From: Trypanosoma brucei
Lineage: Eukaryota
DNA: 64,000 nt
Direction: 5' to 3'
NCBI GenBank assembly: GCA_000002445.1
Contig: CP000069.1
Span: 960,001 to 1,024,000 of the forward strand
Below are positions 24,345-62,856 of the stretch, piece by piece; positions within the stretch are counted from its first letter, which is position 1, and each line of letters begins with the position of its first letter. The notes under the pieces were generated by a model. That model was not told the DNA's origin and searched no databases. It was given only the letters and a program-made list of their open reading frames with translations. Made by a program: the position numbers and the translations under genes.

Positions 24345-24836
24345 ATGATATCATTGCGGGGAAACATAGGTTTGCTTACCCGGCGGCGCCACGCCGTTAT
24401 CACTCTCCACTCTGCATTAGAGTTGTGTGGTGTCACACGTTACAAGAGTTCATTACCCAACAGCGCATTAACTGCTCGAACAGCGGAGGCCCTCTATTCC
24501 ATGGAACATTACCATAAGCAATGCCTCAATGAGGATGAGCGTCGGCAAGTCGAAGTGCAAGCTTGGGAAGAACTAATGAACCTTCCTGATGCTGCAGTGG
24601 AGGATGCGTCCTCAAGCGTTGTCGCCGACATTCTCGGTTCCTGGTGCTATTTTTCGAAATTTTGGGACCGAGGAATACAAGGCCCCAACCCATCAGACAG
24701 TCCTGAAGAAAACAACGTCAAAAAGGTCAATGTTCCTCTAATCGCAAGGGAATTCCACCGACCCCATTCCCCATCAACAGTTGACACGGCACCACCACCC
24801 CGCGCGAATCCACTAGATGAAGTGCTGGACTTTTGA
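24345..24836 (+). CDS. Hypothetical small protein (163 aa), the last ORF of the plus-strand array
   Basis: ORF only. No motifs recognised. The start codon is uncertain. Confidence 0.3.
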   Translation: MISLRGNIGLLTRRRHAVITLHSALELCGVTRYKSSLPNSALTARTAEALYSMEHYHKQCLNEDERRQVEVQAWEELMNLPDAAVEDASSSVVADILGSWCYFSKFWDRGIQGPNPSDSPEENNVKKVNVPLIAREFHRPHSPSTVDTAPPPRANPLDEVLDF

Positions 24837-25923
24837 ATAAGAATTTTTTAAAAATGTAACACCGCATACTTTTACATATTTTCTCCCGACATTTTTTAAT
24901 TTACCGACAATTCCGTACATCACCCCTCAATTCACCACAACATTTCCCCGAAACCTCGTCAAGGAAAAAAAAGAAAATATGGTTTTCTTCACGAACGCGC
25001 AATCGGCAACAAAGCAAAACAAACTGAAAACAACGTAGATCTTCAAAAAAGCAAGGAGAATCCCAAGGAACAAGAAAATACAAATACATACTATCACCTT
25101 CACCACCAACATAAAAGAAGAAGCATTTTACAAAACTATGAAAAAGCTGAGGGGTCGACACCCCCTTCGGAGTGTAATTTTTGAAGAGAATTACCGAATA
25201 GAAACGGGAGTTTCGTATACCGCTCTGGATGAAAGCTTTCCTGTTGTTCATGGCTTTTTTTTTCGTATCGAAGGGGGGAAGGTACACTTTTGTCGGCGTG
25301 CAAGTGAGTTTAGCACGTAGTCGCCACACAAATACTGAGGCATTTAGTGGGCTGGTAAATGAACTCAAATCATTTTCCAACTGGAGGGAAATATCAGAGA
25401 AACTTACGTGGGAGATTATATGTGTACATCAAGAGGACTGGAAAAGCGTTGCGGATGTTCAGAATTGCGAGGCAACGGGTGAAGCGAGAATGAAGAGAAT
25501 TCGTACTCAGTCTGGCAGTACAAATTGTCCGCGTGAGGATCGAAGAGGAGTTAATAAAGCTAATGCTCTTTGGAAAATGTTTTTTTTTTTCAGTACCGTC
25601 TTCGGGTGGGAAAGAATGCGATTCCCACTTTGTTTTCTTCCGCTGTGACGGACTCCAGTGTGAGTACCTTACAGACACTTCTTCCCTGATAATGTCTTCA
25701 TATCAACATCATTTATTTTGATTACTCTAATGAGATGAATACTTATGTTATGTTGATTTGAATATAACCGATGTGTCTCCCTTTTTATATTCATAAATAA
25801 TTAGATGCGAAATACCATACTTATTTAACCTGTTTGCAAAATAATGTGTTGATTGACATATACGTTATGTTCACCTACATTTTTTTGCATATAGTCTCAC
25901 CATGCTTGTACACTTGCCCAATT

Positions 25924-25934
25924 GGGGGGGGGGG
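25924..25934. repeat. G11 homopolymer
   Basis: attggggggggggggctaaaa, read directly. Confidence 0.9.
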
Positions 25935-26059
25935 CTAAAAACAAAGCATGTTACATGAGTACGCAAATACATTTTTAACAATTTATTCGTTTTTATTTGG
26001 CTTCTTATGAAGTGAGGACAAACTTCACATTGTTGAGTAGCTAAGTTCTTTTCGCAGCC

Positions 26060-26125
26060 TCATGATAATAATAATAATTATTAATATTGTATGCCTTACA
26101 TTGTCACGTAAGAGGAGGAGGAGTG
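26060..26125 (+). repeat. Single degenerate element resembling a VSG-associated 70-bp repeat
   Basis: tgataataataataattattaatattgtatg....gaggaggaggagtg: a (TAA)n tract followed by a GT-rich tract and a GAG-rich tract. This resembles the tripartite 70-bp repeat found upstream of T. brucei VSGs. Only one imperfect unit is present. Confidence 0.3.
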
Positions 26126-26999
26126 AAACAAATGCTATTTGTTTAAGTTAGGTTTTTTCTATCTTCTCTTTTCATTGTTCACATAAACATTGCATGTTAG
26201 TGTTTTCGACAAAGCAGTGCATTCAACAATATTAGCATTTTTCAGTAATAATAAAACATAAATATATCTATGTGTTCCTCTCTATTTATATTTTTAATGT
26301 GCATGCGCTTACGGTACGAAAGAAAACATCTATTGTATTAAATTTTTACCACTTATTACAACTTAATAGTTGGATTCCTGCATGGTGCACTCCAACTCTC
26401 CCTTCCTATCTGCTTATCTACAACACTTTTATTTCTCACATACCATCACATGATTCTAATAGGGATATGGTTATACTAGCTGATTCCGTGATAGCTTCCC
26501 CCCTTGGTTTTTTTTCCAAAAATGACGGGAAATGATACGAGAGATGTTGGGACCTCCAACGAAAATTCGTTTCTGTTACTTTGACAAGTACATGATACAG
26601 TGTTAGACTTAAATGCGGGGATGGAGTTCATTAAAGGACAGATGAAAATACAGAGAGATGAAATTGCGTCTATGGATATGAGACTTAGCAAACAAATGAA
26701 AATACGGGAGGAAAAAGGTGTGGATATAAGTAGGACGTTGAATTGGCTGACGTTACTGGTTGAAAATGAGCGTCCTGGTGCATATGAATCTGCGTACAAT
26801 GTAATACAGCGCGTAATCTCATATGACGATAATAAGGGATTGCTGGGGTTGCATGCTGAGGAAAGGGTTGCTAACCTTCGGGCAGATGAAAAATGCCATA
26901 CCAGGTTCGACCGAAATGGGCCGATATTGCATGTTATCACCTCTAAGAAGGGTTGGTCATGCACAGATTTTGGTGGAAGAGATGCATGCGACATGTTTG

Positions 27000-27150
27000 T
27001 GCGCAAGGAGACGGTACGTATGTGGCACAGAATCCGAGCACATTTGGATGATTGGTTACCGACTGGCTCCCAAGTGTCCCAACAGCCCCTCTTACTTGTT
27101 TGTTCTCGGGAGATCGGAAAATCCTGTGGTCGGGAGAATACAGCGATGTG
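27000..27150 (-). mobile_element. Degenerate ingi-related (DIRE-like) fragment on the minus strand. It is 5'-truncated inside the AP-endonuclease region and may extend further toward about 26.5 kb.
   Basis: The reverse complement of 27100-27150 reads cacatcgctgtattctcccgaccaca..., matching the internal ingi site catcgctgtattctcccgataccgaccaccatcaca at 27762 in copy 1. Downstream similarity (gagaacaaacaag against gagacgacacagac) decays quickly. Confidence 0.4.
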
Positions 27151-27376
27151 CCCTGACGATGCCAGCCACCTCAACGTGGTGTCAGAGTCCAGTACCCCGT
27201 CTCATCGGGGGAAGCCAAGAGCCAGCAGCGTTCCTTTCATGGGCAACACTGCTGTGCTCCGGCTACGGCATCATACAGCACAGGGATCAGCAGCGTCTTG
27301 CTGGGACACCGTTTTTCATTTGTCGGTCCATGGGCACGTGCCAGCGTGTCATCAGCAGTATATCATCCACACTAAG

Positions 27377-30300
27377 ATGCTGCTGTCCGGTGATGTGGAA
27401 GAGAATCCCGGCCCGTCGTTGCGCGGGATGCAGTGGAACTGCGCCGGGCTATCTCAAGGAAAGAGATTAGCATTAGCACGTCGGCATACATCCCACCAAA
27501 ACGCACATTCACGGCAAATGACTTAGATACGCTTCTGACGACCGACGGTGCCCAGCTCATCGGTGCAGACGCTAACGCACACGCGTTGGTATGGGATCGC
27601 GCGAGCCCACCAAATACCAAGGGTGAAACCCTCACACAGTGGTGCATTGACAACCAGCTTCTGGTCTGTAACACTGGTGAGTGCACCAGGTACGCCCGCC
27701 ACCACGTGAAGCCCACCCCTGATATGACGCTATCAAGGAATTTCACAGTGTCCAGGTGGACATCGCTGTATTCTCCCGATACCGACCACCATCACATATT
27801 TTTCGACGTTATTGTTGGAGACGACACAGACTCACTGAGCTGCCCGCGGCTTTGAAAACCCATGTACGCATAGCTAAAAGCTGACTGGAGGAATTTCCGT
27901 CTCAAGGTTGACGAGTTCTGCAGAAAAATTGGTAGAGAATAACGTCAACACCCTGAAACAGAAATTGAGCTCCGCCATCCGCATTGCGACGAAGGTCTCC
28001 GTTCCCCGTGGCTGCAGAGCAACGCCACCACATGGGACACCTGCGCTCGCGAAACTCGATGAAGAGATCGCTGGATACGGACCCTCTCACCGAAGGGAAA
28101 AGTTGGTAGCCACGCGTAAGCAGATCCTGGACCGCACCACAAAGAAGAGATGGAGCACGCTATGCTCCAGACTTGCGGTGTCAGACCGCTGCAGTTGGCA
28201 CATTGTCAAGAAAGTATACGCGCCACGACCACTAACCACACCGGCTGTACTTGTTGATAACGCGGCCATCACGGACTACCGTCAAGCTGAGAGGTTCAGT
28301 AAACTGTACTCATCCCGCGCAAGAAGGCACCCCGACTCACACCCACCGGCACCCATAAAGACGATAGCGAGTGAGTTTAGTCTCATCACGATAGCTGAAC
28401 TACGGAGATCGATCAAACTGCTACCGAGTGGATCCGCAGCCGGACCTGATTGCTTATACAACGAGGCATTACAACATCTCGGTAGAGCAGCGCTGAATGT
28501 TGTGCTGAGGCTATTCAATGAGAGCCTACGAATGGGAGCCGTGCCGTCTGCATGGAAGACCGGTGTTATCATCCCCATCCTGAAGGCCAGAAAAAAGGAA
28601 GAGTACCCCGAATCTTACAGGCCTGTGACGCTCACGAGCTGTCTCTGCAAAGTCATGGAGCGCATAATTGCCGCAAGGTTTAGAGACACTGTTGAGTCCC
28701 AGCTGACGCCGCAGCAATCAGGCTTTCGCCCCGGATGCTCACCGCTCGAACAACTCCTGCACGTCTGCGCTGCCCTCTGCCGTCCCACGCACCAATATCG
28801 TACAGGTGCTGTATTCGTTGACTACGAGAAGGCATTTGACACAGTAGACCACGACAAAATTGCGGGGGAAATGCACAGAATGAAGGTATCACCCCACATT
28901 GTGAAGTGGTGCGTATCATTTCTGAGTAACCGAACTGGTAGAGTGAGATTCAAGGAGAAACTTTCCAGAAGCAGAACATTTGAGCGAGGAGTGCCACAAG
29001 GAACTCTCCTTGGCCCAATCATGTTCATAATTGTCATGAACTCGTTGAGCCAACGCCTTGCAGAAGTGCCGTTGCTGCAGCACGGATTCTTTGCAGACGA
29101 CCTGACGCTACTTGCGAGGCACACAGAGGGATGTCATCAACCAGACGCTACAATGCGGCCTAAACGTGGTGTTACAGTGGTCAAAAGAGTACTTCATGTC
29201 TATCAATGTAGCGAAAACAAAGTTCACACTCTTCGGGTTCACAGAGCGCCACCCCCTTACATTACAACTGGAAGGCGAAAGAATAGGAGCTGACAGGACA
29301 CCGAAGCTTCTAGGAGTAACATTCCAGTGTCTGCAAGGGATGGCAACACATGCGGCCGAAACGAGACGCAAGATGGACTTCCGACTACTGCAGATAACAG
29401 TCATCTCAGCTTCTATATGGGGGCCAATACGACAAGTGCTGAGAGCTTTTTATCTAGCACTCGTACAGGCACGCACCATGTGTGGCATTGAGGTATGGTA
29501 CTGGGACGCTTCGGAACGAAGTCGCGACCTCCTTGCAGCAGCACAACACAAAGCCAGTCGAATCATAGCTGGCATACCGCATGGGACGCGCGAAGAGGAC
29601 TCTCTGCTGGAAGCAAACCTCCTGCCACTCAAGACGACCACTCTTGTGCGCAGCATGAAATTCATGCTGATGTGTGAGTCACGAGGCGGATGTTTGCGGC
29701 GCAGTGCTGAGGAAGTATACCACAGCAAACACCCAGTCAGAGCCCTACACTCCCGCATCATGCGGTCCTACCCCCACCTCCGCATTGAGCCACGCGAGCA
29801 CCCACTAGAGACATCGACGCTCCGCCACAGCTGCCGACCGATATTTCACACGCAGATAAAGCCTGTGTGCGCTGATGACCCTGACAATGTCAAAAGGGAG
29901 GCTTCCGAAAAGTGATTGCACGGCATTTTTCACGGAGGGGGAAGGAGCCACCGCGGCGAGTGCACTACGAATTGTGGACTGATGGATCCGTGCCCCTCGG
30001 TGAGAAGTCCGGATCAACTGCCCTGCTCTATAGAAACAACACGCTGATTTGTGCACCCGAGACCGGAGCAGGGGAACTTTCATGCAGTTACAGAGCGGAA
30101 TGCGTAGCATTAGAGATAGGACTGTAACGGCTGCTGAAATGGCTTCTGGCATACAGAAGCACACCGAGCAGGTTGTCCATCTTCTCTGACTCGCTGTCAA
30201 TGTTAACAGCACTGCAGACGGGCCCCCTATCCGTAACGGACCCAATTCTGAGACGACTATGGAGGCTTCTGCTTCAAGTTGAGAGAAGGAAGGTGCGTAT

Positions 30301-31883
30301 CCGACTGCAATTTGCGTCCGGCCATTGTGGCGTGAAACGGAATGAGGTTTGCGATGAAATGGCCAAAAAGGCCGCTGATTTACCACAGTTGCGAGACGCA
30401 TGGATCCCCGACATCATTGCTTATGCGAAGCGAGTGCTTAGGTCGGAAGAAGTCTATGAGAACACTCATAGGTTTGGTATCACGGGCAACCACTTTCCAA
30501 CAAAACATAAAGAAGAACTGACGGGGGAAGAAGAAACGGCACTGGCACGCTTTCGGGTTGGAGTCTTCAAGATACTATGGATGGATGTTGCGAAAGATCA
30601 ACCCGAGTGTGCCTCCACAGTGCCGATGGTGCAACCCGCAACATGCAGCAATAGGGCCAACAATACAAACAGTCCCAACTGTTGCGACACGCACTCTTCA
30701 GAGAACCTCCGAACCAACTAAATGTACGGAATGTGATGCCACATACCAATACCTGTCGAATGCTGTAACGCACATGGTAAACAAACATGGCTTTGTGCGA
30801 GCTGATGCCCTCCGGAGGATCAAATACGGCGATGCAACACCCGCAGTGGACATCCTCCCGGAGCCCTCTCCAGTGGTGGCGATCGTTCCTCTACCATCGA
30901 GCATACGAGTCCTGATGAGACCGCAGGTGCTTTACTGTACCCTCTGTGCCTCCAAATTCGCAGTGCCAGGCCGACTATTACACCATCTTAGAACAATACA
31001 TGGCATAGGCAGCGGTAGTTGCCGCGTGAAAAGGGGGCGAGAGAGCGAGGACTCAGTGCAAGGAGATGGTAGCGTCCCAGCAGCCCCAGCCCCTCAGGAA
31101 ACACGGAAGCTGCCGTTTCAATGTGACCTGTGCGAGGCGAGCTTCAGTACACGTTCTTCCCTGTCACTACACAAGAAATTCAAGCATAAGAGCATAGTGA
31201 CGGAGGACGGTACCGTGGTGTTGGTGCAATTCCCTCGTAAGCGTGCCCGTGAGGGAAACGTTGACGTCCCGGGGAAAGGCGAGGTGCAGTGTGGTGTGTG
31301 TCAAAAAGTGCTCAGTTGCAGGGACTCCCTCATCCGACACTGTAAGGCTTTCCACAAAGGTGAGGGAGTCGAGCTTAAATGCAGCAAAAGCACAAAATTG
31401 CGTGCCACTGATTCCCCGCATACAAATGCATCCATGTTGGTGCGCCCGACATGCGGAAGGCAGTGTGCTAGCAAAACTGGCCTCACCCTACATCAAAAGA
31501 AGATGCACGGTATGAAGGTAGAGCGCGCTGTTACCAGCCAACGCGGCGACTGCGAAGAAACGTCGCTGCACCTGATGAGCTGTCCCAGTTTGAAGGAGTT
31601 ACGTGTCAGGCTTGCAGTAGAAGGTGAGTGTGTGCAGGATATATGTTTTTCCAAAAGGCTGGCGCAATTTCTCATTGCGGTTGAACGGAGCCGGCCGCAG
31701 GTGAAGTCCTCCCCCAATGTAACAGTCATACAACCCACTCTCCCTTCTGCAACTTCCCAGCTTATTGCCGAGTGTGGAGCTAGCAGGAAAAGCACCGGAC
31801 GCTGGAATAGTCCAGACACCCTCAGAGACAGAGGGGGTATGCAGTTAACAAGCAACAGAAACAGAAAGAGGGAGAGAGAATAA
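27377..31883 (+). pseudogene. ingi polyprotein ORF (APE-RT-RNase H-ZnF) disrupted by multiple frameshifts
   Basis: The ORF track shows successive fragments 26600-27526, 27433-27855, 27908-29293, 29112-29915, 30173-30721 and 30558-31883 in different frames. Together they reconstitute one retrotransposon polyprotein. Confidence 0.75.
27392..27415 (+). other. 2A-like co-translational ribosome-skipping motif (D-V-E-E-N-P-G-P) at the N-terminus of the ingi ORF
   Basis: The codons gat gtg gaa gag aat ccc ggc ccg encode ...MLLSGDVEENPGPSLRGMQWNCAGL... The motif lies about 12 codons upstream of the APE domain start (QWNCAGL) and conforms to the canonical D(V/I)ExNPGP. Confidence 0.8.
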
Positions 31884-33611
31884 TAAACAAATAACAAAAT
31901 TCAAAACAAAAGGATTGCTAATTGACATTTTTGTGAGAGTCCGGGGTGGGAGGCTTCTCGCCCCGTCTGCTGTATTCCGTTCAACTGCGGAGCTACAACA
32001 AAACGTTATAGAGAGGGTGTGTTAGGATGAATAATAAAGGGAGACTCTGCCACAGTCGCCAGACCGATAGCATCTCAGGGCTCTACGGTGATGGCTGATG
32101 GCCGTGCCAGTGGGGGGAAACTCTCACGAAGGCACGAAAAAAAAAATTTTTAAAGTCTATAGGCAAACCTCTACCCTGATATGGCTAATGTTATCCGCTA
32201 AGAGATTTTGTTCGTGTCAGTATAAGCAGATGTCTCATGCCACAAGAGAATTTACGTATGGTTTTTGCTGCAAACAAACCAAATGATATACTTAAGTTTA
32301 CGTGTTTTCTTTCTTATAATTGAAATAGATGACATTATTTTGTCCATCTTTTTTTCCTTTTCTACTGACCAATCGCCTTCCGTATTTCTCATCCTGATGT
32401 CGAATATTATTCCTGTTTCCTCATTTTTTATTTCAGTAAACAGCAATTTTGCACAGCTATCACTCGACAAAAAATATGTTAATAATCTGAATAGTAATGA
32501 TTATATTATTATAAGAGAACACATTCATGTACGCCACTACTTCTCCCAGTAACAACGATAATCATACATAACATTGTATGTGCGTGTTCACGCGTTTCTC
32601 GTACATTATCATTTCTTTTGTTGTAATGTCCCTGTTTGAGTCATCTCAATTGCGAGTTATTATAACTCTGGTTGTCCCTCCACTATCTTTGTTTGGGGGT
32701 GGTGGGGTGTGTTAATGCTCTTTGCATGTGGAGTGGGGATAGAGGAATAGGGCCCTGCTTATGTGAAGAGTGTGTGAAGTAAGGATGATGAGAGTTACTT
32801 ATAAGGTGTGTAATTATTTTGCGTGTGGAAAATGGTCTAAATGAGGGTGCTGAGAGGGAAGGTCTCTAATTATTCTGGGACTGTTTTGTGTGCTAGCAAC
32901 TAACATAATATTCCATCATGCCAACGTATAATGAAAGGTTTCATTAATAAGCTTAATTTTCTGAGATGGTGTTTTGAAACCCCAATTGTTACCTTTACTA
33001 GTGTGTTGTTTAGGAAAATGGAACGCAAGAAGCTGTGTATACATATAGAGAGGGAAAGAAAGAGTATTTCCAGTACGCGTATGAAAGGAAGAGGATATGC
33101 TGAATAGGGCTCAGTAGCAGAGTTGTGTTCATTGGACAAGGGTAACACGTGCGTGCAAATTAGGCACGTGATGTGCCAGCGAATTAAGCTATTAAAGTAG
33201 CAACTGGAGCCAATGGAGGACTTGGAAAAATAGCATAACGTGAAGGTGCAAGTACTCATGAGGAGAATGGATAAGCTTGTTATTGATGGAAGGTGCAGCG
33301 CAGCTCAGTTGGAGGTGCGGTTACTTGGCATGATGGTTAGTGAAGTTTTTTTTTTTTGAATCAAGAAGTTAGGGAAAATGGGGTAACCAACAGGAAAACA
33401 CCTGTGAGGGAACTCAATGTTGATATACGGCTTGAGGGGAGGGTTCCATACAACTCTGTGTGCTTTGGGATGTGCTTCCTCTTTTGTTGAATGCTGCTGT
33501 AGTTGGTTTGTGTCAGGCACTTATTAATTTCGATATTTTTATGTGTCTGTTTGTTGTGTCTGTCAATAACAACAACAATTGTTATGACAAGCTTTAGTTT
33601 TCTCCTCCTTT

Positions 33612-35019: not shown

Positions 35020-35249
35020 TTTATTGGTACGTTACCAACATTGTTGTGTAGTGTTTCGATTCTTTATTGTTTTTATTTGGATGCGTTCTTTCTTTTTTTT
35101 TCGAGCCTGACGGTATGTGAGTTTAAAATAATTGCATTTGAATTTTTTTTTCTTTCCTTTGAATGAATAATCAATGTGGTATCACTTTTTCTTTTGTTGG
35201 AATGTGTGTCTTGTCGTTTTTTTTGCTGTTATCAAGATAGCAGCATTTT

Positions 35250-37255: not shown

Positions 37256-37402
37256 CATCGCTGTATTCTCCCGATACCGATCACCATCACATATTTTTCG
37301 ACGTTATCGTTGGAGACGACACAGACTCACTGAGCTGCCCGCGGCTTTGAAAACCCATGCACGCATAGCTAAAAGCTGACTGGAGGAATTTCCGTCTCAA
37401 GG

Positions 37403-39775
37403 TTGACGAGTTCTGCAGAAAAATTGGTAGAGAAGAATGTCAACACCCTGGAACAGAAATTGAGCTCCGCCATCCGCATTGCGACGAAGGTCTCCGTTCC
37501 CCGTGGCTGCAGAGCAACGCCACCACATTGGACACCTGCGCTCGCGAAACTCGATGAAGAGATCGCTGGATACGGACCCTCTCACCGAAGGGAAAAGTTG
37601 GTAGCCACGCGTAAGCAGATCCTGGACCGCACCACAAAGAAGAGATGGAGCACGCTATGCTCCAGACTTGCGGTGTCAGACCGCTGCAGTTGGCACATTG
37701 TCAAGAAAGTATACGCGCCACGACCACTAACCACACCGGCTGTACTTGTTGATAACGCGGCCATCACGGACTACCGTCAAGCTGAGAGGTTCAGTAAACT
37801 GTACTCATCCCGCGCAAGAAGGCACCCCGACTCACACCCACCGGCACACATAAAGACGATAGCGAGTGAGTTTAGTCTCATCACGATAGCTGAACTACGG
37901 AGATCGATCAAACTGCTACCGAGTGGATCCATAGCCGGACCTGATTGCTTATACAACGAGGCACTGCAACATCTCGGTAGAGCAGCGCTGAATGTTGTGC
38001 TGAGGCTATTCAATGAGAGCCTACGAATGGGAGCCGTGCCGTCTGCATGGAAGACCGGTGTTATCATCCCCATCCTGAAGGCCAGAAAAAAGGAAGAGTA
38101 CCCCGAATCTTACAGGCCTGTGACGCTCACGAGCTGTCTCTGCAAAGTCATGGAGCGCATAATTGCCGCAAGGTTTAGAGACACTGTTGAGTCCCAGCTG
38201 ACGCCGCAGCAATCAGGCTTTCGCCCCGGATGCTCACCGCTCGAACAACTCCTGCACGTCTGCGCTGCCCTCTGCCGTCCCACGCACCAATATCGTACAG
38301 GTGCTGTATTCGTTGACTACGAGAAGGCATTTGACACAGTAGACCACGACAAAATTGCGGGGGAAATGCACAGAATGAAGGTATCACCCCACATTGTGAA
38401 GTGGTGCGTATCATTTCTGAGTAACCGAACTGGTAGAGTGAGATTCAAGGAGAAGCTTTCCAGAAGCAGAACATTTGAGCGAGGAGTGCCACAAGGAACT
38501 GTCCTTGGCCCAATCATGTTCATTATTGTCATGAACTCGTTGAGCCAACGCCTTGCAGAAGTGCCGTTGCTGCAGCACGGATTCTTTGCAGACGACCTGA
38601 CGCTACTTGCGAGACACACAGAGAGGGATGTCATCAACCAGACGCTACAATGCGGCCTAAACGTGGTGTTACAGTGGTCAAAAGAGTACTTCATGTCTAT
38701 CAATGTAGCGAAAACAAAGTTCACACTCTTCGGGTGTATAGGGCGCCACCCCCTTACATTGCAACTGGACGGCGAAAGGATAGGAGCTGACAGGACACCG
38801 AAGCTTTTAGGAGTAACATTCCAGTGTCTGCAAGGGATGGCAACACATGCGACCGAAACGAGACGCAAGATGGACTTCCGACTACTGCAGATAACAGTCA
38901 TCTCAGCTTCTATATGGGGGCCAATACGACAAGTGCTGAGAGCTTTTTATCTAGCACTCGTACAGGCACGCACCATGTGTGGCATTGAGGTATGGTACTG
39001 GGACGCTTCGGAACGAAGTCGCGACCTCCTTGCAGCAGCACAACACAAAGCCAGTCGAATCATAGCTGGCATACCGCATGGGACGCGCAAAGAGGACTCT
39101 CTGCTGGAAGCAAACCTCCTGCCACTCAAGACGACCACTCTTGTGCGCAGCATGAAATTCATGCTGATGTGTGAGTCACGAGGCGGATGTTTGCGGCGCA
39201 GTGCTGAGGAAGTATACCACAGCAAACATCCAGTCAGAGCCCTACATTCCCGCATCATGCGGTCCTACCCCCACCTCCGCATTGAGCCACGCGAGCACCC
39301 ACTAGAGACATCGACGCTCCGCCACAGCTGCCGACCGATATTTCACACGCAGATAAAGCCTGTGTGCGCTGATGACCCTGACGATGTCAAAAGGGAGGCT
39401 CCCGAAAAGTGGATTGAACGGCATTTTGCACGGAGGGGGAAGGAGCCACCGCGACGAGAGCACTACGAATTGTGGACTGATGGATCCGTGCCCCTCGGTG
39501 AGAAGTCCGGATCAACTGCCCTGCTCTATAGAAACAACACGCTGATTTGTGCACCCAAGACCGGAGCAGGGGAACTCTCATGCAGTTACAGAGCGGAATG
39601 CGTAACATTAGAGATAGGACTGCAACGGCTGCTGAAATGGCTTCCGGCATACAGAAGCACATCGAGCAGGTTGTCCATCTTCTCTGACTCGCTGTCAATG
39701 TTAACAGCACTGCAGACAGGCCCCCTAGCCGTAACGGACCCAATTCTGAGACGACTATGGAGGCTTCTGCTTTAA
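37403..39775 (+). pseudogene. ingi copy 2 RT-RNase H ORF (790 aa), terminated by a premature stop shared with copy 3
   Basis: RT motifs (FFADD) and RNase H (ELWTDGSVPLGEKSGSTALLY). The ORF ends ...RRLWRLLL at a TAA where copy 1 has CAA (Q). Confidence 0.8.
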
Positions 39776-40055
39776 GTTCAGAGAAGGAAGGTGCGTATCC
39801 GACTGCAATTTGCGTCCGGCCATTGTGGCGTGAAACGGAATGAGGTTTTCGATGAAATGGCCAAAAAGGCCGCTGATTTACCACAGTTGCGAGACGCATG
39901 GATCCCCGACATCATTGCTTATGCGAAGCGAGTGCTTAGGTCGGAAGAAGTCCATGAGAACACTCATAGGTTTGGTATCACCTGCAACCACTTTCCAACA
40001 AAACATAAAGAAGAACTGACGAGGGAAGAGGAAACGGCACTGGCACGCTTTCGGG

Positions 40056-41519
40056 TTGGAGTCTTCAAGATACTATGGATGGATGTTGCGAAAGATCAAC
40101 CCGAGTGTGCCTCCACAGTGCCGATGGTGCAACCCGCAACATGCAGCAATAGGGCCAACAATACAAACAGTCCCAACTGTTGCGACACGCACTCTTCAGA
40201 GAACCTCCGAACCAACCAAATGTACGGAATGTGATGCCACATACCAATACCTGTCGAATGCTGTAACGCACATGGTAAACAAACATGGCTTTGTGCGAGC
40301 TGATGCCCTCCGGAGGATCAAATACGGCGATGCAACACCCGCAGTGGACATCCTCCCGGAGACCCCTCCAGTGGTGGCGATCGTTTCTTTACCATCGAGC
40401 ATACGAGTCCTGATGAGACCGCAGGTGCTTTACTGTACCCTCTGTGCCTCCAAATTCGCAGTGCCAGGCCGACTATTACACCATCTTAGAACAATACATG
40501 GCATAGGCAGCGGTAGTTGCCGCGTGAAAAGGGGGCGAGAGAGCGAGGACTCAGTGCAAGGAGATGGTAGCGTCCCAGCAGCCCCAGCCCCTCAGGAAAC
40601 ACGGAAGCTGCCGTTTCAATGTGACCTGTGCGAGGCGAGCTTCAGTACACGTTCTTCCCTGTCACTACACAAGAAATTCAAGCATAAGAGCATAGTGACG
40701 GAGGACGGTACCGTGGTGGTGTTGCAATTCCCTCGTAAGCGTGCTCGTGAGGGAAACGTTGACGTGCCGGGGAAAGGCGAGGTGCAGTGTGGTGTGTGTC
40801 CAAAAGTGCTCAGTTGCAGTGACTCCCTCATCCGACACTGTAAGGCTTTCCACAAAGGTGAGGGAGTCGAGCTTAAATGCAGCAAAAGCACAAAATTGCG
40901 TGCCACTGATTCCCCGCATACAAATGCATCCATGTTGGTGCGCCCGACATGCGGAAGGCAGTGTGCTAGCAAAACTGGCCTCACCCTACATCAAAAGAAG
41001 ATGCACGGTATGAAGGTAGAGCGCGCTGTTACCAGCCAACGCGGCGACTGCGAAGAAACGTCGCTGCACCTGATGAGCTGTCCCGGTTTGAAGGAGTTAC
41101 GTGTCAGGTTTGCGGTAGAAGGTGAGTGTGTGCAGGATATATGTTTTTCCAAAAGGCTGGCGCAATTTCTCATTGCGGTTGAACGGAGCCGGCCGCAGGT
41201 GAAGTCCTCACCTAATGTAACAGTCATACAACCCACTCTCCCTTCTGCAACTTCCCAGCTTATTGCTGAGAGTGGAGCTAGCAGGAAAAGCACCGGACGC
41301 AGGAATAGTCCAGACACCCTCAGAGAGGGGGTATGCAGTCAACAAGCAACAGAAACAGAAAGAGGGGGAGAGAATAATAAACAAAGAACAAAATTCAAAA
41401 CAAAAGGATTGCTAATTGACATTTTTGTGAGAGTCCGGGGTGGGAGGCTTCTCGCCCCATCTGCTGTATTCCGTTTAACTGCGGAACTACAACAAAACGT
41501 TATAGAGAGGGTGTGTTAG
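40056..41519 (+). pseudogene. ingi copy 2 C-terminal C2H2 zinc-finger ORF (487 aa)
   Basis: Multiple C2H2 fingers (CTECDATYQYLSNAVTHMVNKHGF, CTLCASKFAVPGRLLHHLRTIHG, CDLCEASFSTRSSLSLHKKFKHK, CGVCPKVLSCSDSLIRHCKAFH). It is frameshifted relative to the upstream ORF. Confidence 0.75.
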
Positions 41520-41568
41520 GATGAATAATAAAGGGAGACTCTGCCACAGTCGCCAGACCGATAGCATC

Positions 41569-42750
41569 TCAGGGCTCTACGGTGATGGCTGATGGCCGTG
41601 CCAGTGGGGGGAAACTCTCACGAAGGCACGAAGAAAATTCCAAAAAAAAAAAAATAGAGAAGCATATATCCTGCACACACTCACCTTCTACCGCAAACCT
41701 GACACGTAACTCCTTCAAACCGGGACAGCTCATCAAGTGCAGCGACGTTTCTTCGCAGTCGCCGCGTTGGCTGGTAACAGCGCGCTCTACCTTCATACCT
41801 TGCATCTTCTTTTGATGTAGGGTGAGGCCAGTTTTGCTAGCACACTGCCTTCCGCATGTCGGGCACACCAACATGGATGTGTTTGTATGCGGGGAATCAG
41901 TGGCACACAATTTTGTGTTTTTGCTGCATTTAAGCTCGACTCCCTCACCTTTGTGGAAAGCCTTACAGTGTCGGATGAGGGAGTCCCTGCAACTGAGCAC
42001 TTTTTGGCACACACCACACTGCACCTCGCCCTTCCCCGGGACGTCAACGTTTCCCTCACGGGCACGCTTACGAGGGAATTGCACCAACACCACGGTACCG
42101 TCCTCCGTCACTATGCTCTTATGCTTGAATTTCTTGTGTAGTGACAGGGAAGAACGTGTACTGAAGCTCGCCTCGCACAGGTCACATTGAAACGGCAGCT
42201 TCCGTGTTTCCTGAGGGGCTGGGGCTGCTGGGACGCTACCATCTCCTTGCACTGAGTCTTCGTTCTCTCTCCAACTTTTCACGCGGCAACTACCGCTACC
42301 TATGCCATGTATCGTTTGAAGGTGGTGTAATAGTCGGCCTGGCACTGCGAATTTGGAGGCACAGAGGGTACAGTAAAGCACCTGCGGTCTCATCAGGACT
42401 CGTATGCTCGATGGTAAAGAAACGATCGCCACCACTGGAGGGGGCTCCGGGAGGATGTCCACTGCGGGTGTTGCATCGCCGTATTTTATCTTTCGAAGGG
42501 CATCAGCTCGCACAAAGCCATGTTTGTTTACCATGTGCGTTACAGCATTCGACAGGTATTGGTATGTGGCATCACATTCCGTACATTTGGTTGGTTCGGA
42601 GGTTCTCTGAAGAGTGCGTGTCGCAACAGTTGGGACTGTTTGTATTGTTGGCCCTATTGCTGCATGTTGCGGGTTGCACCATCGGCACTGTGGAGGCACA
42701 CTCGGGTTGATCTTTCGCAACATCCATCCATAGTATCTTGAAGACTCCAA
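41569..42750 (-). pseudogene. ingi copy 3 C2H2 zinc-finger ORF, C-terminally truncated at the breakpoint
   Basis: It matches the copy 1 and copy 2 ZnF ORFs up to ...VQDICFS, then continues into unrelated sequence (the copy 2 poly(A) region read in reverse). Confidence 0.7.
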
Positions 42751-45662
42751 CCCGAAAGCGTGCCAGTGCCGTTTCCTCTTCCCTCGTCAGTTCTTCTTTA
42801 TGTTTTGTTGGAAAGTGGTTGCACGTGATACCAAACCTATGAGTGTTCTCATGGACTTCTTCCGACCTAAGCACTCGCTTCGCATAAGCAATGATGTCGG
42901 GGATCCATGCGTCTCGCAACTGTGGTAAATCAGCGGCCTTTTTGGCCATTTCATCGAAAACCTCATTCCGTTTCACGCCACAATGGCCGGACGCAAATTG
43001 CAGTCGGATACGCACCTTCCTTCTCTGAACTTAAAGCAGAAGCCTCCATAGTCGTCTCAGAATTGGGTCCGTTACGGCTAGGGGGCCTGTCTGCAGTGCT
43101 GTTAACATTGACAGCGAGTCAGAGAAGATGGACAACCTGCTCGATGTGCTTCTGTATGCCGGAAGCCATTTCAGCAGCCGTTGCAGTCCTATCTCTAATG
43201 TTACGCATTCCGCTCTGTAACTGCATGAGAGTTCCCCTGCTCCGGTCTTGGGTGCACAAATCAGCGTGTTGTTTCTATAGAGCAGGGCAGTTGATCCGGA
43301 CTTCTCACCGAGGGGCACGGATCCATCAGTCCACAATTCGTAGTGCTCTCGTCGCGGTGGCTCCTTCCCCCTCCGTGCAAAATGCCGTTCAATCCACTTT
43401 TCGGGAGCCTCCCTTTTGACATCGTCAGGGTCATCAGCGCACACAGGCTTTATCTGCGTGTGAAATATCGGTCGGCAGCTGTGGCGGAGCGTCGATGTCT
43501 CTAGTGGGTGCTCGCGTGGCTCAATGCGGAGGTGGGGGTAGGACCGCATGATGCGGGAATGTAGGGCTCTGACTGGATGTTTGCTGTGGTATACTTCCTC
43601 AGCACTGCGCCGCAAACATCCGCCTCGTGACTCACACATCAGCATGAATTTCATGCTGCGCACAAGAGTGGTCGTCTTGAGTGGCAGGAGGTTTGCTTCC
43701 AGCAGAGAGTCCTCTTTGCGCGTCCCATGCGGTATGCCAGCTATGATTCGACTGGCTTTGTGTTGTGCTGCTGCAAGGAGGTCGCGACTTCGTTCCGAAG
43801 CGTCCCAGTACCATACCTCAATGCCACACATGGTGCGTGCCTGTACGAGTGCTAGATAAAAAGCTCTCAGCACTTGTCGTATTGGCCCCCATATAGAAGC
43901 TGAGATGACTGTTATCTGCAGTAGTCGGAAGTCCATCTTGCGTCTCGTTTCGGTCGCATGTGTTGCCATCCCTTGCAGACACTGGAATGTTACTCCTAGA
44001 AGCTTCGGTGTCCTGTCAGCTCCTATCCTTTCGCCGTCCAGTTGCAATGTAAGGGGGTGGCGCCCTATACACCCGAAGAGTGTGAACTTTGTTTTCGCTA
44101 CATTGATAGACATGAAGTACTCTTTTGACCACTGTAACACCACGTTTAGGCCGCATTGTAGCGTCTGGTTGATGACATCCCTCTCTGTGTGTCTCGCAAG
44201 TAGCGTCAGGTCGTCTGCAAAGAATCCGTGCTGCAGCAACGGCACTTCTGCAAGGCGTTGGCTCAACGAGTTCATGACAATAATGAACATGATTGGGCCA
44301 AGGACAGTTCCTTGTGGCACTCCTCGCTCAAATGTTCTGCTTCTGGAAAGCTTCTCCTTGAATCTCACTCTACCAGTTCGGTTACTCAGAAATGATACGC
44401 ACCACTTCACAATGTGGGGTGATACCTTCATTCTGTGCATTTCCCCCGCAATTTTGTCGTGGTCTACTGTGTCAAATGCCTTCTCGTAGTCAACGAATAC
44501 AGCACCTGTACGATATTGGTGCGTGGGACGGCAGAGGGCAGCGCAGACGTGCAGGAGTTGTTCGAGCGGTGAGCATCCGGGGCGAAAGCCTGATTGCTGC
44601 GGCGTCAGCTGGGACTCAACAGTGTCTCTAAACCTTGCGGCAATTATGCGCTCCATGACTTTGCAGAGACAGCTCGTGAGCGTCACAGGCCTGTAAGAAT
44701 CGAGGTACTCTTCCTTTTTTCTGGCCTTCAGGATGGGGATGATAACACCGGTCTTCCATGCAGACGGCACGGCTCCCATTCGTAGGCTCTCATTGAATAG
44801 CCTCAGCACAACATTCAGCGCTGCTCTACCGAGATGTTGCAGTGCCTCGTTGTATAAGCAATCAGGTCCGGCTATGGATCCACTCGGTAGCAGTTTGATC
44901 GATCTCCGTAGTTCAGCTATCGTGATGAGACTAAACTCACTCGCTATCGTCTTTATGTGTGCCGGTGGGTGTGAGTCGGGGTGCCTTCTTGCGCGGGATG
45001 AGTACAGTTTACTGAACCTCTCAGCTTGACGGTAGTCCGTGATGGCCGCGTTATCAACAAGTACAGCCGGTGTGGTTAGTGGTCGTGGCGCGTATACTTT
45101 CTTGACAATGTGCCAACTGCAGCGGTCTGACACCGCAAGTCTGGAGCATAGCGTGCTCCATCTCTTCTTTGTGGTGCGGTCCAGGATCTGCTTACGCGTG
45201 GCTACCAACTTTTCCCTTCGGTGAGAGGGTCCGTATCCAGCGATCTCTTCATCGAGTTTCGCGAGCGCAGGTGTCCAATGTGGTGGCGTTGCTCTGCAGC
45301 CACGGGGAACGGAGACCTTCGTCGCAATGCGGATGGCGGAGCTCAATTTCTGTTTCAGGGTGTTGACATTCTTCTCTCTACCAATTTTCCTGCAGAGCTC
45401 GTCAACCTTGAGACGGAAATTCCTCCAGTCAGCTTTTAGCTATGCGTGCATGGGTTTTCAAAGCCGCGGGCAGCTCAGTGAGTCTGTGTCGTCTCCAACA
45501 ATAACGTCGAAAAATATGTGATGGTGGTCGGTATCGGGAGAATACAGCGATGTCCACCTGGACACTGTGAAATTCCTTGATAGCGTCATATCAGGGGTGG
45601 GCTCCACGTGGTGGCGCGCGTACCTGGTGCACTCACCAGTGTTACATACCAGAAGCTGGTTG
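41663..45662 (-). mobile_element. ingi copy 3 (minus strand), truncated at both ends. The 5' end lies in the APE domain at about 45662 and the 3' end at an internal site in the ZnF region at about 41663, so there is no 3' tail or poly(A).
   Basis: It is the reverse complement of copy 2 at about 98 percent identity and shares the same premature stop (...RRLWRLLL). The RT ORF is 43031-45346, followed by 42572-43015 and 41569-42750 on the minus strand. Homology to copy 2 stops at gatatatg (reverse complement of 41663-41670), whereas copy 2 continues there with tttttccaaaaggctggcg.... Confidence 0.85.
43031..45346 (-). pseudogene. ingi copy 3 RT-RNase H ORF (771 aa)
   Basis: Nearly identical to the copy 2 ORF. 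An extra GA near the 5' end (tagagagaagaatg against tagagaagaatg) shifts the first 19 codons out of frame. Confidence 0.8.
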
Positions 45663-47452
45663 GAACTTAAATTTAACGTTCATTGAACGGTTAAGGACTC
45701 TTGTGTGTGCGGCAACGGGCGCCAGCTTATTTACCCACTCTTGCTCTTGGGTACGTTAGCAGGACCTAATTTTCCCCGCCAGTGCTCCACAAACAAATTA
45801 TGTTGGGTCAGTGGGCGGTCACCCATACCACTGCGTATTATTGAAGCGTGCTCTGTGGGGTTGAAACGATTCGGTTCGCTGGTGGATGGATTTTCGGGTA
45901 AGTCCCGATGCACATGTGAGGCTCGCGGCCAGTGGCGTGGCTTCTGTTAAGCGTAGCGATTACGTCTTGATTCCGTTTTTCTTAGTTTGGACGGTGTGGT
46001 GGCACATGCGGAGGCGGTGTTGGTTAACAGTCGCTGATAGCACCAACTGCGCATGTCCTGTTGTATGTTTCGCTTCCAGTCCCTCAAATGGCAGGGGCTT
46101 GGTAATTGACAAGGTGGTCCGCGGAAAAGCATGTGAAGATCTGAAAGTGTGTCTTGAATCCCTGTAGATATGGAGGTGGTGGCATCAATGCGACGACTTC
46201 CCCACTTCATCTTAATATATATGTATTAGCTTGAAGGAACGCATGGGAACACGCAAAGGCACGGTGATTGCAGGCCAGCTGTGCTGAAAGATGGGATGGA
46301 AATGAGAGTACCACAAACGTGAGGGTGTACTGCTCTTCTTTCCGCACGAAGCGTTTGTGTAGTAAATGTGAGGTATGGCAGGCGGCGCGTGCAGAAACGC
46401 AGTGTACGGAAAGCGACTCCCATCATTACGGGGAAATTTCCAAGGAGAACGACAACGGAATACACGTCAGCGGTGCGTCGCGCTTCCCGACGCATTCCAA
46501 ACATCGTCTCAGGGAGTTTGAGATGTCAAGCTTCTCATATGGGAATGTGGAGAAAGAAAAGAAGCCCACGTCGTCTTATGACTGGAAATACTGGAAGCCC
46601 TTTGCTAATCCTCTCAAACGATGCCCGGCGCAAAAGATGAGACACATAATATAGGTGACGGTGACTGTGGTGTAACTCTTGCCGACGGACTCGAAGCTGG
46701 CGAAGCTCCTTCGGGAAGAAATCAATATCATTGCGAAAACCTTCGAAACCGGTGGCGGCGGGTGCTCATTCACCCCCCTTCCCCCCTGGGTTCTTGTCCT
46801 CGTCGACCTTCATTTCGCACCGCATGCGTTGAGGGCCGTTCTGTTGCCGCCATCTGGTTGATGTTGATGAAGTTCTTCTTCTTTAGCCCTTTTATTTCCG
46901 ACGAAGGTGTCGCACACACGTGGGAAAACGCAGAGTGCGTTTGTGCGTATGGGGACTGAGACGCTCAAATCACTAAATATGCAACACGCTGACGTACTGG
47001 GGGTGAAAATAAAACGATGGAAAGAAGAAAGTTACCAACTTTTCAGAAATAAGCAAGCAAGTCACAAAAAGTTTATGCTTACACATTCGTGGTAGCCTGT
47101 GGTTCAGCGGTATCAACATTGTGGTAAACAATGGTTCAGTTGTTGTTCAAATATACACATTTGCTCACACAAAAATGAGCTCATTTTTTTTTTTTTTGAA
47201 ACATTTGATAATGGTATCATTTGGAAATTGGCGATGTAGATGTTTCGATATTAAATTACAGGGTATAATGACATCCAGTGATCGCCAACTCCGGTATTCT
47301 GATTTGACAGAGGGGCATTTCCTTTCCCCCAACCTTTTAGCATCGCTTTCCATGCCCGAATTTGTAAAAAAAAAAAAAAGAAATAACCGATTTTCACTCT
47401 ATTTGTCACATCTCCAGAGTAAAAGGTTTCCTTTCAACTGTGTCTGTGTGTG

Positions 47453-62820: not shown

Positions 62821-62856
62821 TATATATATACATATATATATATTTATACATATATG
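62821..62856. repeat. Imperfect (TA)n / TATACA low-complexity tract
   Basis: tatatatatacatatatatatatttatacatatatg, read directly. Confidence 0.8.

Follow-up and report, generated by a model that had tools for sequence, protein, structure and literature searches.

In Trypanosoma brucei, convergent strand-switch regions are described as zones where Pol II terminates and which carry H3.V, H4.V and base J (PMC4721609, PMC8551723), and losing H3.V/base J derepresses VSG, ESAG, RHS and pseudogenes close to termination sites (PMC4721609). VSG/ESAG islands and ingi/RIME indels interrupt the colinearity of the brucei and gambiense genomes (PMC2854126), and ES-type genes at strand-switch regions have been interpreted as secondary transpositions (PMC3605285). 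Here, we analysed a stretch of 64,000 nucleotides (the window) from chromosome 6 of T. b. brucei TREU927, and the evidence supports that the locus is a convergent strand-switch region. Very likely, it is an ancestral region of this type into which mobile and subtelomere-type DNA was dumped after the split from T. vivax.

All open reading frames (ORFs) that are at least 150 aa long and have family support lie on the plus strand up to position 24836 and on the minus strand from 47453 on. The left array encodes zf-C2H2, Tc-38, APC1-like, PIG-M, calpain, cytochrome b561, NFACT-R and AAA proteins and ends with a 163-aa RESC7-domain protein (24345-24836, plus strand; XP_845457.1 in TREU927, with PF26165 RESC7 recorded), and the right array encodes RsfS/MALSU1, a kinase, a 353-aa protein and a WD40 protein and ends with a 311-aa protein (47453-48388, minus strand; XP_845459.1). 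Both terminal proteins have exact matches in TREU927 and T. equiperdum. GC skew is positive over the left array and negative over the right one, with a cumulative maximum at about 46-47 kb, in agreement with the orientation calls of the first-pass annotation, which had the two arrays converging and proved correct.

The RESC7-domain gene has orthologues at the equivalent position in T. vivax and T. theileri. In T. vivax it faces, across a gap-free spacer of 1111 bp, the orthologue of the 311-aa gene, which is the first minus-strand gene past the strand switch and is followed on the same strand by the RsfS, 353-aa and WD40 genes. In T. theileri it stands opposite a minus-strand array including RsfS and the kinase, and the spacer of 869 bp (N runs included) contains a tRNA-Thr. 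The strand switch is ancestral, because the arrays also converge in these two species, about 1 kb apart. The T. brucei group has 20-26 kb added between the converging arrays compared to these outgroups, and the island proteins have no match at the T. vivax or T. theileri locus. The 22.6 kb island was thus probably gained later than the split from T. vivax, an age bound that is set by this split only, with T. vivax and T. theileri, and not T. congolense, as the outgroups.

The island runs from 24837 to 47452, and the earlier statement that these roughly 22 kb contain no conventional genes stands, since the sole annotated reference CDS, Tb927.6.3400, is the ORF of a repeat element. Its left end is a unique, non-coding and partly AT-rich spacer (spacer A, 24837-26599) with a (TAA)n run at 26062-26081, and its right end is a spacer of unique DNA with normal GC content and without recognisable gene or element (spacer B, 45663-47452). 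Spacer A is 98.3% identical to its counterpart in T. b. gambiense and 98.1% in T. b. equiperdum IVM-t1; for spacer B these values are 98.2% and 97.9%, with 99.8% in T. equiperdum OVI. Neither spacer gave a significant Pfam, ingi or syntenic-protein match, and no ingi-related sequence was found across 45.7-47.4 kb. A 70-bp-repeat-like element that had been proposed for the island was not confirmed: the top match to the canonical 70-bp unit is the (TAA)n run, with a score of 30, equal to the shuffle maximum. A tRNA search had also been suggested for 24.9-26.5 and 45.7-47.4 kb; no tRNA gene occurs anywhere in the window, nor does any Rfam RNA gene. Like the T. brucei centromeric strand-switch domains (Obado et al. 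2007, PMC1868937), the island lies between directional clusters and holds ingi and degenerate ingi-related sequence, but it is extremely unlikely that it belongs to the centromeric domain of chromosome 6. The defining multi-kb AT-rich tandem array, found at one site per chromosome (PMC1868937), is missing here, with zero arrays reported by Tandem Repeats Finder between 24.8 and 47.5 kb and a GC content of 0.38-0.54, and the island is likewise without rRNA genes.

The three ingi copies claimed for the island could all be located. Copy 1 (27151-32148, plus strand) begins CCCTGACGATGCC, is near full length (about 5.0 kb) and ends in an A10 tail; its ORFs are fragmented, it has several frameshifts, its extent was set by self-BLAST, and Pfam detects Exo_endo_phos_2 (47 bits), RVT_1 (E = 3.9e-35) and C2H2 fingers. 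On its 5' side lies an N-terminal RHS (retrotransposon hot spot) pseudogene fragment (26600-27150, plus strand; RHS_N at 26906-27082, 23.9 bits, cut-off 21), which is in frame with the retroelement, one ORF (26600-27526) linking RHS_N to the ingi N-terminus including a DVEENPGP 2A-like motif. The 17 nt preceding ingi exist in one version in TREU927 and OVI and in another in gambiense and IVM-t1. The C-terminal half of the RHS gene was not found downstream of copy 1; directly after the poly(A) there is instead a C-terminal ESAG1 relic (about 32304-32501, plus strand; PF03238, E = 7.7e-9, 35.8 bits, cut-off 27), covering profile positions 160-225 of 227 within an open segment at 32226-32549. Both the RHS fragment and the ESAG1 relic had been overlooked in the first-pass annotation.

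Copy 2 (37253-41654, plus strand) is short by about 610 bp at its 5' end and complete at its 3' end, where it carries an A13 tail; it contains RVT_1 (E = 7e-44) and C2H2 fingers and is 98.1% identical to copy 1 positions 27758-32143. Copy 3 (41657-45662, minus strand), truncated at both ends, corresponds to copy 1 positions 27651-31651, with 97.8% identity to copy 1 and 98.9% to copy 2 across 3896 bp. As read from the sequence, the poly(A) of copy 2 meets the truncated copy 3 via an 8-bp filler, TAGAGAAG. Arranged tail-to-tail, copies 2 and 3 form the left and right arms of an inverted repeat of 3.7-3.9 kb, which had likewise gone unnoticed; the arms show 4 differences in about 2.7 kb and 32 in the roughly 900 bp closest to the centre. 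The ingi copies look recombinant rather than like pristine insertions, because they are without target-site duplications and their flanks are hybrid (those of copy 1 have no common 8-mer, with RHS on the 5' side and ESAG1 on the 3' side), and because of the filler at the junction of copies 2 and 3.

Between copies 1 and 2 lie two further components. The first, at 33642-35016 (plus strand), had been described as a VSG-like pseudogene; it is indeed a pseudogene, full length with a signal peptide and one frameshift near 33814 (in tblastn, residues 1-58 in frame +3 and 59-455 in frame +1), and matches VSG_B (E = 6.9e-22), but its identity had to be corrected to the ESAG2/GRESAG2 family, as it shares 86% identity with an 'ESAG protein, putative' of TREU927 and 67-82% with ESAG2/GRESAG2 entries. 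ESAG2 descended from b-type VSG (PMC3605285). The strand-switch interpretation stands whatever becomes of the 'VSG-like' and '70-bp' details. The second component had been taken for two degenerate ingi-related fragments, of which the ingi relatedness was retained and the number was not, since the best reading is a single 1.76 kb dispersed repeat unit (35494-37274, minus strand). The unit runs from 37251 to 35494. Its 5' end is of the ingi type (37004-37274, matching that of ingi at 92.6% identity), and it also contains a diverged homologue of the zinc-finger region at the ingi C-terminus (E = 6e-5 pairwise, 5.8e-10 combined, tblastn). End-to-end copies are present on gambiense chromosome 3 and IVM-t1 chromosome 1 (93.7-94.8%), and a 5'-truncated copy on gambiense chromosome 10 (96%). 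Inside it lies Tb927.6.3400 (CDS 36401 to 35718, minus strand; 228 aa, identical to XP_845458.1), whose family comprises no fewer than 21 members that share 90% identity or more. As conservation of this ORF is about twice that of the remainder of its unit, at least one component of the island may not be pure junk.

Between the identical gene pair, the island measures 22.6 kb in TREU927, 20.1 kb in T. b. gambiense and 25.9 kb in IVM-t1. In gambiense, GRESAG2 is absent and a VSG C-terminal/3'UTR fragment is followed by a canonical 70-bp unit at the equivalent place, and in a gap-free stretch of IVM-t1, GRESAG2 is inverted together with the spacer upstream of it, the two running on directly into the right-hand ingi. 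Three lengths, differing cargo and an inverted segment across three assemblies uphold the genome plasticity that had been claimed for this region. Could the island mainly be what remains of a VSG expression site translocated from a telomere, or of a VSG array from a subtelomere, the ingi copies being secondary passengers? The gambiense fragment and 70-bp unit would suit such an origin, as would an ESAG6/7 pair elsewhere at a strand-switch region that was read as having transposed secondarily out of an expression site (PMC3605285). The ESAG1 relic and the ESAG2-family pseudogene moreover share their orientation. In expression-site maps, ESAG2 is located upstream of ESAG1. The ESAG1 relic here lies upstream of the ESAG2-like gene, which would reverse that order, and the window lacks a VSG, a 70-bp repeat above chance level and any ESAG beyond these two. 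Moreover, the cargo varies among the subspecies while the frame of ingi and RHS is common to them, and therefore it is the retroelements that seem to form a stable scaffold, with the ES-type genes as its exchangeable part. We consider a VSG-site origin unlikely.

The tail-to-tail junction of a plus- and a minus-strand ingi is found in all three T. brucei-group assemblies, at differing junction points. Within the window, pairwise identity of the ingi cores is 98.3-99.8%, and in IVM-t1 the left and right copies are 99.4% identical, whereas the copies of the window reach only 94.2-95.8% against every copy from the other two assemblies, even their positional orthologues; for comparison, the unique spacers are about 98% and the flanking genes 97.8-99.1% identical across assemblies. 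The ingi copies would thus evolve in concert, being closer within a genome than between positional orthologues. Some caution applies, as the TREU927 reference served to order the chromosomes of gambiense (PMC2854126), the gambiense island contains a 100-N gap, and the left part of the IVM-t1 island has a 100-N gap with the palindrome centre appearing twice, once to each side of it and in opposite orientations; some apparent strain differences may therefore be assembly artefacts. That the inverted ingi pair itself, along with some of these differences, is an artefact of repeat-rich DNA is quite improbable: short-read contigs of T. equiperdum OVI do end within ingi copies on both sides, but the window is gap-free, its arms differ at copy-specific sites, are truncated at distinct points and meet in a defined poly(A)/filler junction, the three assemblies sharing the junction are independent, and the inverted IVM-t1 segment has no gaps.

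The same inverted pair could be imagined as a functional siRNA locus that silences ingi genome-wide: read-through from either array would give a 3.9 kb hairpin RNA for Dicer to process into siRNAs, and selection together with gene conversion between the arms would preserve the arrangement. The near-identity of the arms and the recurrence of the junction would fit. Moreover, siRNAs are produced in T. brucei from ingi, from long inverted repeats and from every convergent transcription unit, selection keeping inverted repeats has been speculated on (Tschudi et al. 2012, PMC3447711), and siRNAs of these classes rise upon H3.V loss (PMC4721609). However, ingi siRNAs cover the whole element evenly on both strands and could be supplied by many dispersed copies (PMC3447711), so that no special locus is necessary, and this locus is not among the inverted repeats or chromosome 6 convergent units tabulated in that study. 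In gambiense, the left and middle copies are 96.6-96.9% identical, so the high arm identity is not conserved, and a separate junction point in every assembly resembles neutral decay at a palindrome centre. A dedicated siRNA locus therefore has little likelihood.

Returning to the ancestral strand switch turned dumping ground, the island would have been built up via retrotransposition and later reshaped by ectopic recombination, inversion and gene conversion among ingi copies. Insertions between converging arrays may be tolerated because DNA there breaks no transcription unit. The island is probably silenced by the chromatin of the termination zone (H3.V, H4.V, base J) as well as by RNAi on ingi, and would be without a dedicated function of its own. 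Termination, silencing and lack of function are what we infer for this locus, a Pol II termination zone with H3.V, H4.V and base J being expected from the literature on convergent strand-switch regions generally. Together, these data describe a real island that rearranges fast between strains, in a class of region already known and in an annotated reference genome.

Compared to known systems, the inverted ingi pair resembles the siRNA-yielding repeats IR1-IR7 (PMC3447711) in its kb-scale near-identical arms, a spacer of about 0.5 kb and an RNAi-active genome; unlike these, its arms are ingi, for which that study pooled all reads, and are 98.9% identical compared to 99-100% with at most 14 mismatches. 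The RHS N-terminus running in frame into a retroelement recalls RHS pseudogenes with ingi/RIME at a hot spot (Bringaud et al. 2002), in so far as PMC7563717 relates them, but only the N-terminal half is kept and the ESAG1 relic replaces the downstream half, so the flanks of copy 1 are hybrid. With the internal VSG/ESAG islands and ingi/RIME-mediated indels of Jackson et al. 2010 (PMC2854126), where this chromosome 6 locus is not described, it shares an interstitial position, high variability, an ingi/RHS/ES-type make-up, differences in length and content between TREU927 and DAL972, and evidence of ingi-ingi recombination; the TREU927 cargo is, in contrast, an ESAG1 relic and a GRESAG2 pseudogene and not VSG. 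Finally, as in other T. brucei convergent strand-switch regions (PMC4721609, PMC8551723), the arrays converge (last genes at 24836, plus, and 47453, minus) and the island contains the silent gene kinds (ESAG, RHS, pseudogenes) reported near termination sites, although this locus has a spacer of 22.6 kb where the outgroups have about 1 kb.

The two gene arrays of this window meet at an ancestral convergent boundary that is filled by a lineage-specific mosaic of retroelements and ES-type relics, rearranged and homogenised between strains. The first-pass annotation of the region described a real feature and its interpretation is broadly correct; its list of components is corrected here. It had called the left genes plus-stranded and the right genes minus-stranded, which is borne out by the ORF strands and by the change in skew sign. 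Every family-supported ORF of at least 150 aa lies on the plus strand up to 24836, the left array (zf-C2H2, Tc-38, APC1-like, PIG-M, calpain, cytochrome b561, NFACT-R, AAA protein, RESC7-domain protein) ending with the RESC7-domain gene (24345-24836, +, XP_845457). From 47453 every such ORF is on the minus strand, in an array (311-aa protein, RsfS/MALSU1, kinase with beta-helix, 353-aa protein, WD40 protein) that begins with the 311-aa gene p311 (47453-48388, −, XP_845459). GC skew changes from positive in the left part to negative in the right, its cumulative curve peaking at 46-47 kb, and six window-encoded proteins are exactly identical to TREU927 chr 6 entries, e.g. XP_845451 (GPI mannosyltransferase), XP_845461 (kinase) and XP_845460/62.

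The same boundary was found in the outgroups. In T. vivax a gap-free spacer of 1111 bp separates the RESC7-domain gene (+) from the p311, RsfS, 353-aa and WD40 genes, which follow in this order, all on the minus strand, and in T. theileri the RESC7-domain gene (+) is opposed, across a spacer of 869 bp (N runs included), by a minus-strand array with RsfS and kinase. The reading of the region as a convergent strand switch therefore holds, with correct gene orientations and the plus-strand RESC7-domain gene opposing a minus-strand array in both outgroups too. Neither outgroup locus has protein matches to ingi, RHS, ESAG1, ESAG2 or Tb927.6.3400, the sole annotated protein within the island (24837-47452, 22.6 kb). 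Because the T. vivax and T. theileri arrays converge at the RESC7-domain gene without island-protein matches, the comparison indicates that the convergence point is older than the T. brucei/T. vivax split and that the island was added afterwards. The T. theileri convergent spacer contains a tRNA-Thr(CGT) (L005:10815-10888); no tRNA was found at the syntenic spacer in T. vivax or the T. brucei-group loci, and the search for tRNA genes that had been proposed for the strand switch came out negative, ARAGORN and Rfam detecting no tRNA or structured-RNA gene in the whole window.

Some differences in the flanks were observed alongside. The T. vivax right array is without a kinase gene between the RsfS and 353-aa genes, and in T. 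theileri an extra 596-aa gene adjoins the strand switch, of which no relic was detected in T. brucei. Spacer B, the unique DNA at the right island end (45663-47452), was considered as its decayed orthologue, a proposal left unsupported by a best tblastn E of 0.16 in a search space of only 1.8 kb; neither spacer B nor its left-end counterpart spacer A (24837-26599) has recognisable content. The AAA+ ORF at 22414-24009 (+) encodes 531 aa, in agreement with the T. equiperdum, gambiense (T. b. gambiense DAL972) and IVM-t1 (T. b. equiperdum) models; the TREU927 entry XP_845456.1 has 470 aa, probably through a different choice of start codon in the reference annotation. At the right edge, 62000-64000 falls to 31% GC; homopolymer and TA-rich low-complexity DNA and short imperfect repeats (period 14-32) occur in it, and ORFs do not. 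This may be an extended intergenic region, or another boundary may lie just beyond it.

Within the island, self-BLAST delimited the three ingi copies that had been recognised in the first pass, numbered here from left to right. Copy 1 (27151-32148, +) is near full length, has the conserved 5' signature and 3' poly(A) of the ~5.2 kb element (5' start CCCTGACGATGCC, A10 tail), is frameshifted and carries endonuclease, RT and C2H2 domains. Copy 2 (37253-41654, +) misses ~610 bp at its 5' end and ends in an A13 tail, and copy 3 (41657-45662, −) is truncated at both ends. The ingi domain matches comprised PF14529 (47 bits), RVT_1 (E down to 7e-44) and zf-C2H2 (above cut-off), with the coding region split into several ORFs in all three copies, none of which retains a single uninterrupted ORF. 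The flanks of copy 1 share no 8-mer or longer that could represent a target-site duplication; copies 2 and 3 adjoin other elements, the copy 2 tail meeting truncated copy 3 across an 8-bp filler. The missing duplication fits recombination after insertion and is no argument against ingi identity.

The surroundings of copy 1 are hybrid, with RHS at the 5' side and ESAG1 at the 3' side. An RHS_N domain (Pfam, 23.9 bits versus a cut-off of 21; 26906-27082) lies upstream of copy 1 and in frame with it, and the ORF at 26600-27526 runs from the RHS N-terminal domain directly into the ingi N-terminus. In the open segments past 32148 no match to the second half of RHS was obtained; there is instead an ESAG1 C-terminal relic directly after the copy 1 poly(A) (PF03238, 35.8 bits versus a cut-off of 27; open segment 32226-32549, +), an element that the first-pass annotation had not listed.

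A second ES-type relic occupies 33642-35016 and is a full-length ESAG2-family (GRESAG2) pseudogene, its reading frame broken by one frameshift between residues 58 and 59. It had been described as a VSG-like pseudogene, of which the pseudogene status and the VSG-type fold (PF13206, VSG_B, E = 6.9e-22) stand and a VSG as closest relative does not: all 16 significant homologues are annotated as ESAG, ESAG2 or GRESAG2 and none as VSG, 14 of them at 67-86% identity (best 86%) and the other two being 44% and 51%-coverage matches. ESAG2 is derived from b-type VSG (PMC3605285), yet no homologue is a VSG, so that the pseudogene is VSG-like at the fold level only. The 70-bp-repeat-like element that had also been reported was dropped: the best local score against the canonical unit, 30, comes from a (TAA)n run only and equals the maximum of 20 shuffles, and no tandem array is present in the island.

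Two degenerate ingi fragments had also been proposed. Their ingi-related character was retained, and their number was not: in 45.7-47.4 kb neither a tblastn search with ingi proteins nor Pfam applied to the open segments gave a significant match, and what remains is a single, discrete dispersed repeat of 1.76 kb, running on the minus strand from 37251 down to 35494 (entry 35494-37274). End-to-end copies with 94-95% identity are present on gambiense chr 3 and IVM-t1 chr 1, and a 5'-truncated copy with 96% identity on gambiense chr 10 (L014:4153-5995, L015:4153-5990 and L016:4554-5999 among these other-chromosome loci). Its first ~270 bp are of ingi type (92.6% identity with the ingi 5' end, CCCTGG...), and its 228-aa ORF is exactly the 'hypothetical' Tb927.6.3400. 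This protein shows diverged homology to the C-terminal zinc-finger part of ingi, and no fewer than 21 'T. brucei spp.-specific' proteins sharing 90% identity or more make up its family. For 37004-37274 we considered a twin-priming-type inversion at the 5' end of copy 2 and rejected it, since this segment is the 5' end of a separate unit that is intact on other chromosomes. Among the copies the CDS diverges at about half the rate of the rest of the unit (3.1-3.7% versus 6.6-8.8%), with a dN/dS of 0.39-0.79; an A-run is internal to the unit, homology extending ~90 nt past it. The unit could represent a non-autonomous ingi relative not yet described, or else a fragment that has been domesticated. 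Tb927.6.3400, like the 'T. brucei spp.-specific' proteins related to it, is probably a repeat ORF of ingi-related origin and not an ordinary host gene. No mention of Tb927.6.3400 was found in the literature searched.

A shared 17-mer connects this repeat with the RHS junction. GGGAGAATACAGCGATG lies directly 5' of copy 1 at the junction (27132-27148, +) and occurs antisense inside every ingi copy, at 27761-27777 (−), 37256-37272 (−) and 45536-45552 (+), and in this antisense form it borders the 1.76 kb unit that interrupts copy 2. At the RHS junction of gambiense and IVM-t1, GGTTGAAACATGCTGCCCAC takes the place of GGGAGAATACAGCGATG, and the same flank is found 5' of the repeat copies at L014 and L015. 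Such flanks suggest that a target motif is preferred or, alternatively, that a conversion tract brought flank sequence with it.

Copies 2 and 3 stand tail to tail and form an inverted repeat of 3896 bp with 98.9% identity, its arms ~0.5 kb apart. Only 4 positions differ between the arms over ~2.7 kb, versus 32 in the 900 bp closest to the centre, where 40253-41149 pairs with 41657-42553, and because these differences form a mosaic, the uneven divergence points to conversion tracts and not to one clean duplication.

Comparison of the T. brucei-group assemblies supports the plasticity that had been attributed to the region. Between the same flanking genes the island measures 22.6 kb in TREU927, 20.1 kb in gambiense and 25.9 kb in IVM-t1, the last compared on either side of its middle 5.85 kb. 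Spacer A, the RHS fragment, a left (+) ingi, a right (−) ingi with an identical 5' truncation point and spacer B are common to all three, and the interior differs. The gambiense island, which contains a 100-N gap, has no GRESAG2; its left ingi is abutted by a full-length (−) ingi, followed by a VSG C-terminal domain/3'UTR fragment and a canonical 70-bp unit, a cargo that replaces GRESAG2 (composite 22008-24314 of L007/L009; FN554969.1 ~765.7-768.0 kb), and past the 70-bp unit by ~1.5 kb of unmatched DNA in which the gap lies. In gap-free sequence of IVM-t1, GRESAG2 and its upstream spacer are inverted and contiguous with the right-hand ingi, as recombination between the left and right copies, which are inverted relative to each other, would be expected to produce; the left part of this island is gapped, with palindrome centre on both sides. 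A complete RIME (ingi 5' and 3' halves; L013 reverse-complement 2038-2540), not present in TREU927, is inserted upstream of the IVM-t1 GRESAG2, whose lesion is an internal stop and not the TREU927 frameshift; the two pseudogenes were therefore inactivated independently.

The ingi copies resemble their neighbours more than their positional orthologues. Over a 1.6 kb core, identity is 98.3-99.8% among the three window copies and 99.4% between the left and right IVM-t1 copies, and window copies match any gambiense or IVM-t1 copy, positional orthologues included, at 94.2-95.8%; between assemblies the unique spacers are ~98% and the flanking genes 97.8-99.1% identical. These identities indicate concerted evolution of the ingi copies within genomes. 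In T. equiperdum OVI, whose short-read contigs end inside ingi copies, spacer B is preceded on its left, at one contig end (L001:12723-13040), by ~33 nt from the 5' end of the 1.76 kb unit. The junction of these nucleotides with ingi falls at the truncation point of copy 2, where TREU927 has that of copy 3. Either OVI has a fourth arrangement or this end of a short-read contig is chimeric.

A (+)|(−) tail-to-tail ingi junction occurs in each of the three assemblies, at a different junction point each time. This recurrence of a comparable junction, together with the location of the near-palindrome exactly where two Pol II arrays converge, makes the locus a possible hairpin source, and its long, near-identical arms are of the kind that defines an siRNA-generating long inverted repeat. 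It might accordingly be imagined as a dedicated hairpin-RNA 'master locus', likened to a piRNA cluster, that feeds ingi siRNAs into RNAi and has its arms homogenised by gene conversion. We consider this highly improbable. The inverted ingi pair may have a hairpin-siRNA role, but none is needed, since siRNAs of both strands already come from dispersed ingi copies. The Tschudi tables of inverted repeats and convergent units do not list the chr 6 locus, and the identifiers Tb927.6.3400 and Tb427.06.33xx/34xx are absent from the Reynolds supplements, the latter series also not being found in the literature searched. A centromeric domain, which in T. brucei is defined by an AT-rich tandem repeat array of several kb (PMC1868937), was rejected because no such array is present; island GC is 0.38-0.54.

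The mosaic built on an ancestral boundary can be placed in what is described of such regions. PMC4721609 and PMC8551723 present convergent strand-switch regions of T. brucei as Pol II termination zones with H3.V, H4.V and base J; PMC4721609, PMC8551723 and PMC3447711, taken jointly, describe VSG, ESAG, RHS and pseudogenes near termination zones as silenced by those marks, and siRNAs as coming from ingi, inverted repeats and convergent units alike. DNA inserted between converging arrays would be tolerated and accumulate, because insertion there would break no transcription unit, and ingi copies could then act as substrates of ectopic recombination through which cargo is imported, inverted and swapped, in an island that would itself have no dedicated function. 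The ancestral spacer of ~1 kb, a presumed termination zone, has grown to 20-26 kb, and inversion and gene conversion between ingi copies keep rearranging its contents. The locus offers a worked example of how trypanosome core chromosomes take up mobile and subtelomere-type DNA at strand-switch regions and a marker of structural polymorphism among T. brucei subspecies. It is also a spot where reference-guided assemblies are unreliable. The gambiense chromosome order was set on the TREU927 reference (PMC2854126), which qualifies the comparison of assemblies, as do the gaps in the gambiense and IVM-t1 islands and the OVI contig ends within ingi.

The sequence is part of an annotated reference genome and contains nothing new in kind. 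The region is a member of a class already described, and its novelty is low. Jackson et al. (2010, PMC2854126) describe VSG/ESAG islands in chromosome interiors and indels mediated by ingi/RIME, both of which interrupt the colinearity of brucei and gambiense, and ES-type genes at strand switches have been read as secondary transpositions (PMC3605285). With respect to the RHS hot-spot configuration summarised in PMC7563717, the second half of RHS is missing here, but the in-frame join of the RHS N-terminal part to ingi is the same.
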